Virus record (IMG/VR): IMGVR_UViG_2671180805_000011
From: a virus
Lineage: Duplodnaviria; Heunggongvirae; Uroviricota; Caudoviricetes
DNA length: 6,830 bases
Strand: one strand, 5' to 3'
Part shown: in pieces, positions 1,824 through 6,526 of the stretch
Position numbering within the stretch: the first letter of the stretch is position 1
Layout: each line of letters begins with the position of its first letter
The notes under the pieces: model-generated
The model's database searches: none
The model's input: the letters and a program-made list of their open reading frames with translations, nothing else
What the model was told of the DNA's origin: nothing
Program-made: the position numbers and the translations under genes

Positions 1824-2790
1824 ACTTGAGCGAGATATATTAAAAAAAGCAACAGCGTATTTTGCACAGGAGTCGCTGAAAAATACGCGTTAATCGAACA
1901 ATGGCGACAACAATTTCCCATTGAAGCGATGTGTCAGGTATTTGGTGTATCCAGGAGCGGTTATTACAACTGGGTACAGCATGAACCCTCAGACAGAAAA
2001 CAAAGTGATGAGCGGCTAAAACTGGAGATTAAGGTGGCACATATCCGCACTCGCGAAACATATGGAACCCGGCGGCTCCAGACGGAGCTGGCAGAGAATG
2101 GCATCATCGTTGGTCGTGACCGACTGGCACGTCTTCGTAAGGAGCTAAGGCTACGCTGTAAGCAGAAACGCAAGTTCAGAGCGACTACGAACTCGAACCA
2201 CAATCTGCCAGTTGCGCCAAATCTGCTGAACCAGACGTTCGCTCCTACAGCACCAAATCAGGTCTGGGTGGCGGACCTGACGTATGTTGCCACACAGGAG
2301 GGATGGTTGTACCTCGCTGGCATCAAAGATGTTTATACGTGCGAAATTGTCGGCTACGCCATGGGAGAGCGCATGACAAAAGAGCTGACAGGTAAAGCCC
2401 TGTTTATGGCGCTCAGGAGCCAGCGCCCACCTGCCGGGCTAATCCACCACTCTGATCGAGGTTCACAGTACTGCGCATACGATTACCGGGTCATACAGGA
2501 GCAGTCTGGTCTGAAAACATCAATGTCGCGTAAAGGTAACTGTTACGACAACGCTCCGATGGAAAGCTTCTGGGGAACGCTGAAAAATGAGAGCCTGAGC
2601 CACTATCGTTTTAATAACCGGGATGAAGCCATCTCAGTAATACGGGAATACATTGAGATTTTCTACAATCGTCAGCGTCGTCACTCTCGTCTGGGGAATA
2701 TCTCCCCGGCAGCCTTCAGGGAAAAATATCATCAGATGGCTGCTTAAAAAAAGAACAAATGGTAGTGTCCGCTATTGCCAGTACACCTCA
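1824..2790 (+). mobile_element. 5'-truncated IS3-family insertion sequence (lacks left inverted repeat and most of orfA)
   Basis: Retains orfA C-terminus (...ELERDILKKATAYFAQESLKNTR), slippery run A-AAA-AAA at 1842-1848 for -1 frameshifting, complete OrfB and the right terminal repeat 2758-2790. Only ~967 bp versus ~1.2-1.3 kb for intact family members. Confidence 0.8.
1929..2747 (+). CDS. IS3-family transposase OrfB (DDE integrase catalytic domain)
   Basis: 272-aa ORF with the DDE signature contexts WVADLTY, HSDRGSQY and NAPMESFWGTLKNE; the -1 frame is open from 1830 (KKSNSVFCTGVAEKYALIEQWRQQFPIEAM...), as expected for an OrfAB fusion. Confidence 0.9.
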   Translation: MCQVFGVSRSGYYNWVQHEPSDRKQSDERLKLEIKVAHIRTRETYGTRRLQTELAENGIIVGRDRLARLRKELRLRCKQKRKFRATTNSNHNLPVAPNLLNQTFAPTAPNQVWVADLTYVATQEGWLYLAGIKDVYTCEIVGYAMGERMTKELTGKALFMALRSQRPPAGLIHHSDRGSQYCAYDYRVIQEQSGLKTSMSRKGNCYDNAPMESFWGTLKNESLSHYRFNNRDEAISVIREYIEIFYNRQRRHSRLGNISPAAFREKYHQMAA

Positions 2791-2996
2791 GGATAGCGGT
2801 CATGTGATGCCGGTTTCCCGGTAACTCAGCACCGGTATCTGAGTCAACGTTTTCTCTACTGGGTCATTTCCGATACGCCCTGCCTGCTGACAGGCTTTCA
2901 TCACATCTGAAAATATAGCACCCTGACTGATACTGTAGTACCTAAGGTTCCAGAAACTGTGATGTATCCGGCACAGAAAAGCCCCTCCGGAGAGGG

Positions 2997-3200
2997 CTGG
3001 AGAGTGGCGCTATGTGCCATTGCATGATGCCGGGTGCCTCCCGGTGAATTCAGTACCAGCACCTGAATCCGCGATTATCCCATATACCTACTCGCTGATT
3101 GCCCCTCCGCACAGGGGGATTCACCATGCCAGTTTCTTTTAACAAACTCCCCGCAAAACAGACAACTGTCAACCGTCTGAATTGTGAGACATTTAAAAAA
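2997..3200. repeat. Third, slightly diverged copy of the conserved ~200-bp segment
   Basis: Aligns with 807-1012 and 5576-5781 with a handful of substitutions (for example catgatgcc versus catggtgcc). Here it directly follows the argO terminator with no insert. Confidence 0.85.
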
Positions 3201-3220
3201 AAGGCCCGCAAAAGCGAGCC
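3195..3220 (-). terminator. Rho-independent terminator downstream of the tRNA cluster
   Basis: Minus strand GGCUCGC-UUUU-GCGGGCC followed by eight U (plus-strand A-run 3195-3202). Confidence 0.5.
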
Positions 3221-3234
3221 AGGGAAAATAAGTG

Positions 3235-3311
3235 TGGCGCGTTGTACTGGATTCGAACCAGTGACCGATTGCTTAGAAGGCAATTGCTCTGTCCGGCTGA
3301 GCTAACAACGC
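3235..3311 (-). tRNA. argO: tRNA-Arg (anticodon UCU)
   Basis: 77 nt; perfect acceptor GCGTTGT/ACAACGC, anticodon loop CUUCUAA, T-loop TTCGAAT, CCA encoded. Confidence 0.85.
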
Positions 3312-3324
3312 ATGATGCAGATAA

Positions 3325-3401
3325 TGGACCGCCATCGGGGACTTGAACCCCGCGCAGCCAGCTTCGAAGGCTGGCGCTCTTTCCTGATGAGCTAATGGCG
3401 G
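3325..3401 (-). tRNA. argN: tRNA-Arg (anticodon UCG)
   Basis: 77 nt; acceptor CCGCCAT/ATGGCGG, D-arm GCTC/GAGC, anticodon loop CUUCGAA, T-arm CGGGG-TTCAAGT-CCCCG, CCA encoded. Confidence 0.85.
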
Positions 3402-3408
3402 TATGTGA

Positions 3409-3484
3409 TGGTGGCCCTTGCTGGATTTGAACCAGCGACCTGGCGATTATGAGTCGCTCGCTCTCACCACTGAGCTAAAGGGCC
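3409..3484 (-). tRNA. ileZ: tRNA-Ile2 type (anticodon CAU, presumably lysidine-modified)
   Basis: 76 nt cloverleaf with CCA; closely resembles the E. coli ileX sequence as I recall it. Anticodon CAU alone cannot exclude tRNA-Met. Confidence 0.75.
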
Positions 3485-3524
3485 GGGAGCCGCATAATAA
3501 CGACGCGTAATTAATTCTTCAATA

Positions 3525-4583
3525 TCATCCGTTCTGGCTGACTAAATCCTGTACTTCCCGAACCGTCTGCTCAAAACGTTCAGTCTCCAGCTCAACGCCA
3601 ATTGCACGACGCCCGAGCGCCAGTGCCGCTTTCACTGTCGAACCCAACCCCATGAAAAAATCTGCAATCAGGTCACCCGGACGACTGCTAGCGCTGATTA
3701 TCTGCTGCAGCATTTCTGCCGGTTTTTCGCACGGATGTTTCCCGGGATAGAACTGCACCGGTTTATGCGTCCACACATCGGTATACGGCACCTGCACCGT
3801 CACGCCAAAATACCGCCGCAGATGTTTATATTCACTCAGCAGCTCCGCATACTGCCGGTTCAGTGAGGTATACGTATCCACCAGCTGGTGGTGGAGCTTT
3901 TCCAGTTCACCACGCCGATGCTTCTCTTCTGCCACCCGGGCAAACAGCGCCTGTAATTTCAGATAATCGCTTTCATTCGGCAACTGCCACTGACCGGCAC
4001 TGAACCAGTGCGACACCATGTTTTTCTTTCCTGTGGCATCTGCAATCTGTTTTGCCGTTATCCCCAGGGCAGCTCGCGCATCACGAAAGTAAGAAATCAG
4101 CGGGGCCATCACATGCTGTTTCAGTGCACTGCCCTTCGCCGCATACCCGGCATCTTTCGGACGATACGGCCCCTGATAATGTTCCGCGAACAGAATGCGC
4201 TCTGTGGCGGGGAAATACGCCCGCAGGCTTTCCTTGTTGCATCCGTTCCAGCGTCCGGACGGCTTCGCCCAGATAATATGGTTCAGCACACTGAAGCGTT
4301 CACGCATCATGATTTCGATATCAGATGCCAGGCGATGACCACAGAACAGGTAAAGACTTCCGGCAGGTTTCAGCACCCGCCAGAACTGCGCCAGACACTG
4401 GTCCAGCCACTTCAGGTAATCATCGTCGCCCTTCCACTGGTTATCCCAGCCCTCAGGCTTCACTTTAAAGTACGGCGGGTCCGTGACTATCAGGTCAACA
4501 GAATTTTCGGGTAACGACCGGATAAATTCCAGGCAGTCGGCGTTGATTAACTCACAACTGGATATTTTTACAGTATTAAGCAT
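3525..4583 (-). CDS. DNA methyltransferase (N6-adenine or N4-cytosine, beta-class motif order)
   Basis: 352-aa ORF; N-terminal catalytic motif IV ...SVDLIVTDPPY... and C-terminal AdoMet motif I DFFMGLGS. No adjacent restriction endonuclease, so likely an orphan prophage methylase. Confidence 0.85.
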   Translation of the reverse strand: MLNTVKISSCELINADCLEFIRSLPENSVDLIVTDPPYFKVKPEGWDNQWKGDDDYLKWLDQCLAQFWRVLKPAGSLYLFCGHRLASDIEIMMRERFSVLNHIIWAKPSGRWNGCNKESLRAYFPATERILFAEHYQGPYRPKDAGYAAKGSALKQHVMAPLISYFRDARAALGITAKQIADATGKKNMVSHWFSAGQWQLPNESDYLKLQALFARVAEEKHRRGELEKLHHQLVDTYTSLNRQYAELLSEYKHLRRYFGVTVQVPYTDVWTHKPVQFYPGKHPCEKPAEMLQQIISASSRPGDLIADFFMGLGSTVKAALALGRRAIGVELETERFEQTVREVQDLVSQNG

Positions 4584-4675
4584 GGATCATTAAGCCTGTC
4601 TCTGATAGGCTCATTCTGCTTTTGCGCAAAGCAGTGGGCCTGAGGTTTGCTTGTGAACCCAACGCATGAGCAGAT

Positions 4676-4706
4676 GGCTGGTGGGTGCCCCTAACACCCA
4701 CCAGCC
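4676..4706. promoter_or_regulatory. Perfect 12-bp inverted repeat GGCTGGTGGGTG-N7-CACCCACCAGCC in the methylase leader
   Basis: Seen directly; no adjoining U-tract on either strand, so not a simple terminator. A second smaller hairpin lies at 4616-4634 (CTGCTTT-TGCGC-AAAGCAG). Confidence 0.4.
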
Positions 4707-4723
4707 GCCCATTTACCACAAAT

Positions 4724-4747
4724 AAAAAAGCCTTCACTGCGGAAGGC
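4724..4747 (-). terminator. Hairpin plus U-tract overlapping the stop codon of the small HTH gene
   Basis: Minus strand GCCUUC-CGCAGU-GAAGGC followed by UUUUUUAUUU. Confidence 0.45.
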
Positions 4748-4931
4748 GTCTGTAACAACCGAACTGATAGTCTGCCAGACCCGCCATAACCAGCTGGGTC
4801 AGTATTAACTGGCAGCGTTCGCGTGAAAGGTAAGTATTCTGCGCTATCTCCCCGACTGTCGCCGGTTCGGTAACGCTTAATTCATTAAACACCACTCTGG
4901 CGGTTTCTGTCATATCCTGCTGTTTTAGCAT
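4734..4931 (-). CDS. Small predicted helix-turn-helix DNA-binding protein (65 aa)
   Basis: ORF track; AAGGAAAAG Shine-Dalgarno before ATG; segment VGEIAQNTYLSRERCQLILTQLVMAGL looks like a helix-turn-helix; immediately upstream of the methylase in the same orientation. Confidence 0.5.
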   Translation of the reverse strand: MLKQQDMTETARVVFNELSVTEPATVGEIAQNTYLSRERCQLILTQLVMAGLADYQFGCYRRLPQ

Positions 4932-5049
4932 GTCTTTTCCTTTTCCGGTTAACGTGACACACCAATAACTCTTGTCGAAAAAGCCAGCAAGCTGAAAGAC
5001 AGGTATTCACCGCCACCAGCGCGTTTACTGTACTGACGCGATTTCAGTC

Positions 5050-5075
5050 ATAAAAAACCCGCTCGGCGGCGGGTT
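5050..5075 (-). terminator. tR'-like terminator of the short late leader transcript
   Basis: Minus strand AACCCGC-CGCCGA-GCGGGUU followed by UUUUUAU; repeated at 6727-6752. Confidence 0.55.
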
Positions 5076-5122
5076 GTAGAAACTCTTCTAACGTCAGGCA
5101 TAAAACGCCCATCGTTATGACG

Positions 5123-5150
5123 AATTTACCACAGATTCCGGAAAAATCAA
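5123..5150 (-). promoter_or_regulatory. Late promoter pR'-like (-35 TTGATT, 16-nt spacer, -10 TAAATT), expected site of Q engagement
   Basis: Hexamers read on the minus strand, starting 5 bp after the Q stop; the TAAATT -10 matches my recollection of lambda pR'. Second copy at 6800-6827 with one nearby SNP. Confidence 0.5.
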
Positions 5151-5155
5151 CCTTG

Positions 5156-5644
5156 TTACCTAGTTACCTTTTTTAACTGCCGCTCAGCCCATGCTTCTTC
5201 AATATCAAACCGGGTCACCAGCGCATCATAAAATTTCTTAACTGTTTTTTCCCATGACGCGCGTGTTATCTGGTTTGTCACCTCGCATATAGCATTAAAT
5301 GCCTCCGTTGATGGTAGTCTTTCATAGCCACGACCACCACAACGCTGGCAGTCTCTGATAACAGGCATACCACGTTTTACCGACTCTTCACGATGAATGG
5401 CGACACCACGCCCACGGCAATCCTTACAGGCGGTGGAAACCTCACCCTTTCCGCCACACTCCGGACAGGCAACTTTTACCACCTCCCTGACTTTTTTCCA
5501 TTCTTCCCAGTAAGACGGATACACACCTTTCGTACACTTTGCCCATACCGGCGGCTTACCATCCGGATACTGGAAGGGCTGGAGAGTGGCGCTATGTGCC
5601 ATTGCATGGTGCCGGGTGCCTCCCGGTGAATTCAGTACCAGCAC
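5156..5644 (-). CDS. Q: Lambda-family late antiterminator Q, probably 5'-chimeric or truncated
   Basis: CxxC motifs (CPECGGKG, CKDCRGRG, CQRCGGRG) and C-terminus ...WEKTVKKFYDALV...KVTR match my recollection of lambda Q (...CRDCHGTGR...GRCKGVGY...WSRTVKPLYDALV...AVTR). The track ORF starts at GTG 5644; first ATG is 5603. Codons upstream of 5577 lie in the repeated conserved segment. Confidence 0.7.
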   Translation of the reverse strand: MLVLNSPGGTRHHAMAHSATLQPFQYPDGKPPVWAKCTKGVYPSYWEEWKKVREVVKVACPECGGKGEVSTACKDCRGRGVAIHREESVKRGMPVIRDCQRCGGRGYERLPSTEAFNAICEVTNQITRASWEKTVKKFYDALVTRFDIEEAWAERQLKKVTR

Positions 5645-5972
5645 CTGAATCCGCGATTATCCCATATACCTACTCGCTGATTGCCCCTCCGCACAGGGGG
5701 ATTCACCATGCCAGTTTCTTTTAACAAACTCCCCGCAAACCAGACAACAGTCAACCGCCTGAATTGTGAAGTATTTAAAAATTTCTCCCGCTAACTGATA
5801 CCCGGCTAACAGTCTGGCGTTTTCTTTTTCAGCAACGGGAAAGCAACAACCACCACACCCGCCACCAGCACACCGTCAGCCAGCACTGACATTATCCGGC
5901 TGCTGCAATGCCATTCACAAAAACAGTAAGCAATCACTTTTTACCGTAACAGGTGATAATCCAGATATGTAT

Positions 5973-6326
5973 CTACCCCAGATGAGTAATCCGAAGTTCA
6001 TCCATACCACAGGTCCTGGCTATTCTGTTGTACTCCTGAACAAGAGCAAATAATTCTGAATTAGCAACCATGAACTCATCGCAAACCCTCTGTATAGCAT
6101 CACTATTCAGAATAATAACGTCTCTTCCCGAAAGACGATCAGGAGTACAGAACAAAACTGTCAAACGGCTGAAGGCCTTTGCTCGTGCTGCATTGACTAT
6201 ATCAATACGCTGCCTAAGGATGAAACACCCCGACGCCTCATCAATATTCACTCTACCCACACCATATGAATGATAAATATTTAATGCTGAAAAAACCATT
6301 AGACCGTATAACAAACACTCAATCAA
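5973..6326 (-). CDS. Hypothetical protein, second identical copy of the 1204-1557 ORF
   Basis: ORF-track protein identical to the 1204-1557 product. Confidence 0.3.
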   Translation of the reverse strand: MIECLLYGLMVFSALNIYHSYGVGRVNIDEASGCFILRQRIDIVNAARAKAFSRLTVLFCTPDRLSGRDVIILNSDAIQRVCDEFMVANSELFALVQEYNRIARTCGMDELRITHLG

Positions 6327-6436
6327 TACTTAACAGAACTTTTATTTTTGACAAACATAAAATATTTTCAACAATATCCTGAGCCAGGTATATTTCAGTA
6401 TAAGGCTCTGCCGGAAGGAATCTGGAAGAATGAATA

Positions 6437-6513
6437 TGGCGCGCTGTACTGGATTCGAACCAGTGACCGATTGCTTAGAAGGCAATTGCTCTGTCCGGCT
6501 GAGCTAACAACGC
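6437..6513 (-). tRNA. argO: tRNA-Arg (anticodon UCU), identical to the 1668-1744 copy
   Basis: Same sequence as 1668-1744 at offset 4769. Confidence 0.8.
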
Positions 6514-6526
6514 TGAATACCGATAA

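Follow-up and report, generated by a model that had tools for sequence, protein, structure and literature searches.

A probable non-homologous breakpoint joins a terminator-less STnc100 sRNA gene to the 3' part of a Q antiterminator gene in a mosaic of two Shigella sonnei prophage remnants

Results

Layout of the window and its parent sequences

The window, by which we mean the whole 6,830-nt stretch of DNA analyzed here, contains three partial lambdoid late-region modules on its minus strand, which is the direction of phage late transcription. Comparison with Shigella sonnei genomes resolves it into a mosaic of two prophage remnants, X and Y, in the order X locus, orphan A (1824), Y block, orphan A (5575), X locus. 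The Y block (1825-5574; 3,750 bp) is 99.97-100% identical to remnant Y (loci L003-L011) and corresponds to one continuous Shigella sonnei stretch that runs from inside IS600 to inside Q. It comprises an IS600 element without its 5' end, the Y-type STnc100 gene, three tRNA genes, a DNA methylase gene (4583-3525, minus strand), a 65-aa ORF (ORF65), a late promoter/terminator region, and the 3' part of Q. The remainder of the window, positions 1-1823 and 5576-6830, is 100% identical to remnant X. Self-comparison of the window showed that 807-1823 and 5576-6592 match exactly over 1,017 nt, and the first copy of this duplicate holds STnc100, DUF3927, ORF117, a tRNA-Arg gene, and a decayed tRNA.

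In the order of late transcription, remnant Y consists of Q_Y (273 aa), the late promoter/terminator, ORF65, the methylase, three tRNAs, STnc100, a terminator, and IS600. Remnant X, read along the plus strand, starts with IS600, a DUF1737 fragment, IraM, a terminator, STnc100, DUF3927, and ORF117 and continues with tRNA-Arg, the decayed tRNA, tRNA-Ile, the late promoter, and Q_X (284 aa). The two remnants lie about 670 kb apart in CP104423.1, both in one orientation. E. coli and Shigella sonnei normally have the order Q, tRNAs, ORF117, DUF3927, STnc100, terminator, and IraM, and all 20 Shigella sonnei loci that we fetched show the normal arrangement. Judged by these identities, the window is a copy of remnant Y placed between two overlapping copies of remnant X by the paired joints at 1824 and 5575.

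Genes for tRNA-Ile(CAT) and tRNA-Arg are located upstream of every STnc100 copy. The middle tRNA of the cluster, which in module B is a tRNA-Arg (TCG) gene at 3325-3401, has decayed in the X-type modules (minus strand, 1745-1835 and 6514-6613): its ends are recognizable, its middle has been replaced, and ARAGORN makes no call; the joint at 1824 falls inside one of these relics. A region of 111 nt directly 3' of the Q fragment (5043-5153, minus strand), repeated at 6720-6830 (repeat family D4), carries a short-leader terminator in both copies (5075-5056 and 6752-6733 in the terminator scan). From its position directly 3' of the Q stop codon, we infer that this region contains the late promoter.

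Several further genes flank these features. The 65-aa ORF (4734-4931, minus strand) lies between the late promoter/terminator and the methylase, has its own terminator at 4747-4730, and gives a weak match to a TrmB-type helix-turn-helix (E = 0.0026). A 117-aa ORF without a Pfam match (minus strand, 1204-1557 and 5973-6326), called at 108 aa in certain genomes, separates the tRNAs from DUF3927 and is conserved across many prophages of E. coli and Shigella. Convergent with STnc100, a 111-aa ORF on the plus strand (421-756) is annotated by PGAP as anti-adapter protein IraM and matches PmrD (PF11183), a homologue of a host regulator within a phage late region. An N-terminal DUF1737 fragment on the minus strand (39-210; MAFKHYDVVRAAPPSDLAEKL...) is truncated by the right end of IS600, and of this IS600 copy only the last ~34 nt (1-34) lie inside the window.

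Three copies of STnc100, one without its terminator

The segment shared by the three modules, which a first-pass annotation had treated as a generic conserved repeat, is the gene of the prophage sRNA STnc100 (Rfam RF02076), normally situated about 1.2 kb downstream of Q and equipped with its own terminator. All three copies are on the minus strand and score well above the RF02076 gathering threshold of 47 bits. Copy A (971-782; 132.4 bits) is complete, with a terminator hairpin at 812-791 followed by a U-rich tail. Copy B (3158-2969; 123.6 bits) is of the Y type, 96% identical to the X type, and likewise complete, with its terminator at 2998-2980. Both terminators consist of a 9-bp GC-rich hairpin and a U-rich tail, in agreement with the earlier description of the segment as adjoining a hairpin in modules A and B. 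Copies A and C are identical to each other, and the terminator stem of copy B has three G instead of four.

The third copy, C, gives an Rfam match at 5740-5541 with 103.9 bits. Its 5' body (5576-5740) is intact, but model positions 174-197, which form the terminator helix, are replaced by 36 unmatched bases; neither the terminator scan nor the predicted fold showed a terminator or a hairpin with a U-tail here. The joint has thus destroyed the terminator of this copy. The next terminator on the minus strand is the one at 5075-5056, about 520 nt further on, and the transcript of the third copy would be expected to run to that point. Lacking terminator and U-tail, it probably does not work as a discrete sRNA.

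The joint at 5575

Base by base, the window follows Y through 5574 and X from 5576, exactly where identity with the other copies of the segment had been reported to give way to the Q coding body. The single A at 5575 belongs to neither parent, being T in Q_Y and G in X-type STnc100, and is the base that Y-type STnc100 has in module B. Codon 135 of Q_Y is split at the joint (5574-5576) and changed from ATC to TTC. Since kilobase-scale blocks of 100% identity switch within 1-2 bases, the joint is not a product of chance. Read along the minus strand, the 5' side of the breakpoint is an STnc100 gene cut within the 5' arm of its terminator hairpin, and the 3' side is codons 136-273 of Q_Y, a Q-lambda-family antiterminator of a Shigella sonnei remnant. 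We consider it very likely that this is a non-homologous breakpoint between a terminator-less STnc100 and the 3' part of Q rather than a functional gene fusion. A novel joint at 5575/5576 stands at the sequence level, as first proposed; its attribution to recombination is not established, and an assembly artefact is possible.

What remains of Q

The open reading frame list gives a Q ORF of 162 aa at 5644-5156 on the minus strand. Its genuine Q portion (5156-5574) is 100% identical to nt 404-822 of Q_Y and contains part of codon 135, codons 136-273, and the stop codon. Upstream, the Q frame continues through 23 whole codons derived from the sRNA gene (5577-5644) as far as GTG 5644 and includes an in-frame ATG at 5602; with the split codon 135, there are 24 foreign residues. 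The first-pass annotation had likewise drawn the first codons of the ORF from the repeat, but had placed the ATG at 5603. It had also put the retained Q-like sequence at about 140 residues, close to the 138 that we measured.

The loss is larger than the same annotation supposed. It had taken the 207-aa lambda protein as its reference, which would leave some 65 residues missing; intact Q has 273 aa both in the E. coli reference and in Shigella sonnei (Q_Y), so 135 of 273 residues are gone. Residues 1-113 of intact Q align to Q-lambda 1-113 and residues 182-273 to Q-lambda 116-207, with a 68-residue Cys-rich insert between these two parts. Aligned to full-length Q, the window ORF begins at Q_Y residue 136, and the N-termini of the full-length proteins are Q-lambda-like and unrelated to the STnc100 segment. 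To Q-lambda itself the 162-aa ORF aligns over residues 108-207 only. PF03589 is matched by ORF residues 67-154 (1.5e-31), and the four-Cys zinc-ribbon arm (CxxC...CxxC) is kept.

In Q-lambda, residues 1-44 form a torus in the RNA-exit channel of RNA polymerase, the globular body is made up of residues 61-113 and 153-207, and deletion of residues 1-38 abolishes antitermination while DNA binding is kept (bioRxiv 10.1101/2022.03.25.485794). The window fragment has no equivalent of the torus segment, and its globular body is incomplete, consisting of the second half plus the last six residues (108-113) of the first.

In normal Shigella sonnei genomes, another Q gene follows just beyond the window end, as had been suspected: positions 6792-6830 (minus strand) are the last 12 codons and the stop codon of the 284-aa paralogue Q_X, the body of which lies past the end. 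Comparison of Q_X with Q_Y (6792-6830 versus 5115-5161) reveals an 8-nt deletion in Q_X (TAACAAGG) that abolishes the stop codon, and Q_X gains 11 residues (LIFPESVVNSS) by reading into what is the late-promoter region in Y.

Translation of the Q frame

A survey of start codons found no well-spaced Shine-Dalgarno motif for either GTG 5644 or ATG 5602. The only Shine-Dalgarno-like motif, GGGAGG, is 16 nt upstream of ATG 5602 and lies inside the conserved sRNA hairpin. In intact STnc100 copies, the frame that is here fused to Q is open for 37-53 codons, which makes the in-frame extension of Q incidental. The proposed chimeric N-terminus of Q is accordingly a reading of the ORF finder only. Read-through of transcription from the sRNA promoter or the upstream late promoter might permit some translation, beginning at ATG 5602 or at internal start codons.

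Having lost its promoter context, its start codon, and everything that matches Q-lambda 1-107, the Q ORF is best regarded as a pseudogene and not as a hybrid Q; it is very probably non-functional, as the first-pass annotation had cautiously suggested. With its zinc ribbon and helix-turn-helix, such a fragment might conceivably retain DNA binding. The late promoter 3' of the fragment would rely on the near-identical paralogue Q_X for antitermination.

The twin joint at 1824

The joint at 1824 resembles that at 5575 in consisting of a single orphan A. On one side of it is the spacer between tRNA-Arg and tRNA-Ile of X; on the other is IS600, entered about 297 nt from its left end, within orfA. 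Of this IS600 only the last ~965 nt are present (1825 to ~2789); the left ~297 nt, including the start of orfA, are missing. A complete IS600 (IS3 family) has both terminal inverted repeats and an intact orfA-orfB; this fragment, without its left end, cannot be mobile.

Searches for the joints elsewhere

BLAST searches found neither joint, nor an ORF crossing one, in 5,426 E. coli genomes, and neither joint in phage and plasmid collections. Scanning GTDB representatives, IMG/VR, and JGI metagenomes for exact matches likewise returned neither joint, and an exact look-up among about 15 billion proteins returned no joint-crossing ORF. No full-length Q homologue was found with an N-terminus encoded by STnc100 sequence. 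Internal-start versions of the Q fragment of 122, 108, and 70 aa are on record; those of 122 and 108 aa were considered as products of the joint and were traced instead to frameshifted Q genes or contig-end truncations.

Discussion

Artefact or rearrangement

Whether the joints reflect the assembly or the organism is a close question, in which we lean slightly towards an artefact. We put at about even the chance that the joint at 5575 is absent from the organism and arose as an assembly, scaffolding, gap-closure, or library chimera of two paralogous Shigella sonnei remnants. The failure to find either joint in any collection searched, together with the normal arrangement of every Shigella sonnei locus fetched, points in this direction, and so does the near-perfect identity of the three blocks to normal loci, which leaves no divergence after the event. 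Each joint has exactly one orphan base, an A both times. Position 5574 is the start of two independent Shigella sonnei draft scaffolds and the end of a 343-nt exact repeat between Q_X and Q_Y, and 5576 is the start of a 33-nt block that is identical in X and Y. The left edge of the window lies about 34 nt into IS600, and its right edge coincides exactly with the point of divergence between X and Y, as is typical of contig ends.

The two draft scaffolds (L036, CXCB01000209.1; L038, CWUI01000229.1) are public Shigella sonnei sequences of 4.5-6.8 kb in which pieces of X and Y are separated by runs of N. This mixing shows that short-read assemblies routinely yield chimeras across both paralogous regions.

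Against an artefact, both ends at the joint at 1824 lie away from any branch point visible in the loci compared, and an internal exact duplicate of 1,017 nt is impossible in a plain de Bruijn contig. Paired-end scaffolding predicts the order X2, Y, X1, and the order observed is X1, Y, X2. Random ligation chimeras, for their part, would seldom land twice in one 2-kb locus with unchanged orientation, and no single assembler behavior accounts for all features.

Several specific routes were considered and set aside. A single de Bruijn k for all segment ends would imply overlaps of 34, 33, 40, and 343 nt, which are inconsistent, and could not contain the internal duplicate. Scaffolding with a single 'n' in the style of SSPACE or ABySS, the 'n' later being read as A, would fit the orphan bases, but the predicted contig order is the opposite of that found. 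Ligation of dA-tailed fragments would fit the orphan A's and not the return to the same locus. Among biological routes, homologous recombination between X and Y was rejected as the joined positions are non-homologous, and IS600 transposition as the joint at 1824 is internal to the element and not at an end. Pseudo-sites of a site-specific invertase at the 'CTG(G)AA' joints show only a loose resemblance, with misfitting core bases.

A genuine and very recent duplication-insertion in one Shigella sonnei-type strain is a serious contender, to which we give somewhat less than an even chance. Replication or repair would have switched out of X at the hairpin of the STnc100 terminator, continued along Y for 3.75 kb, and re-entered X 1,017 nt behind the point of exit. 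The flanking X segments, the two A's, and the Y block are all in one orientation, and X and Y are co-oriented in the chromosome; leaving and re-entering one locus in one orientation is what duplication-insertion by template switching would produce. One breakpoint lies within a stable GC-rich hairpin. Prophage remnants of Shigella are, moreover, heavily rearranged, which is evident from multiple copies of IS600, IS1, and IS21 in the fetched loci. Against such an event, microhomology amounts to 0-2 nt and each joint has gained 1 nt, an unusual outcome for illegitimate recombination in enterobacteria. The breakpoints also match the edges of X/Y identity blocks and the ends of draft contigs, and the arrangement was seen in no other genome searched.

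Could the ORF be a working protein?

It is very unlikely that the ORF encodes a working or regulatory protein, whether as a hybrid Q or as a truncated form that occupies the Q-binding site in competition with full-length Q. The retained zinc-ribbon arm and helix-turn-helix half of the body, and the DNA binding of Q-lambda without residues 1-38, speak for such a role. The deletion here is far larger, however, taking the equivalents of Q-lambda 1-107 and with them most of 61-113, which makes correct folding doubtful; a usable ribosome-binding site is lacking, the extra codons come from an unrelated sRNA gene, and the joint is unique and hence carries no sign of selection. Still more improbable, in our estimation, is a combined scheme in which a two-step template switch between remnants 670 kb apart began at the sRNA terminator hairpin and the product of an STnc100-'Q read-through transcript, with zinc ribbon and helix-turn-helix but devoid of the torus, would occupy Q-binding sites and dampen late transcription of the remnants. 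A reading without any joint, in which the conserved segment would be nothing more than the 5' region proper to Q, is refuted and can be given practically no weight. Unrelated DNA encodes the Q-lambda-like N-termini of the 273- and 284-aa homologues; the segment is found beyond the tRNAs, downstream of Q, in every reference locus; and it belongs to an Rfam sRNA family.

Significance and comparison with known systems

We return to a breakpoint between an sRNA gene and a truncated Q gene as the preferred reading. All components are known and identical to database sequence, and the feature is ordinary whatever its origin. Truncated Q genes and IS-riddled, rearranged remnants are routine in Shigella, and the biological weight of this instance is small. 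Its practical consequences are for annotation: ORF finders will report a 162-aa 'antitermination protein' where the proper annotation is a pseudogene beside a terminator-less STnc100 copy. The paired joints with one orphan base each also flag the stretch as a possible misassembly and call for caution in claims about prophage recombination or sRNA copy number.

Among known systems, the fragment is closest to the Q-lambda-type late antiterminators (PF03589; PDB 4MO1, 7UBJ, 7UBM) in the 273-aa variant WP_000762885.1/Q_Y, to which it is 100% identical over residues 136-273. It shares with Q_Y the four-Cys zinc-ribbon arm, the C-terminal helix-turn-helix half of the body, and a late promoter and terminator directly 3'. 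In contrast to Q_Y, it lacks residues 1-135, and thereby the torus N-terminus, most of the equivalent of Q-lambda 61-113, and the CPCC part of the 68-residue insert, as well as the native start codon and upstream context. Partial and split Q genes of E. coli and Shigella remnants, gathered in a 590-member 'antitermination protein, partial' cluster, are likewise 5'-truncated or split and are common in Shigella sonnei; the cases that we inspected are frameshift splits or contig-end truncations, and none is joined to STnc100.

The third STnc100 copy is identical to copy A over its 5' ~165 nt and has the same neighbors on its upstream side (DUF3927, ORF117, and tRNAs). STnc100 (RF02076) is related to PasD (bioRxiv 10.64898/2026.05.13.724894). 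Its terminator hairpin and U-tail are intact in every reference locus as well as in copies A and B, whereas the third copy continues into Q coding sequence instead.

At the level of gene order, each of the three modules keeps the layout of Stx-type lambdoid late regions, namely Q, late promoter/terminator, an optional methylase, a tRNA cluster, and downstream genes, and each carries, as those regions do, a cluster of tRNA-Ile(CAT) and tRNA-Arg. Unlike in the Stx-type layout, the modules of the window are chained head to tail via two non-homologous joints, are interrupted by IS600, and are free of stx genes.
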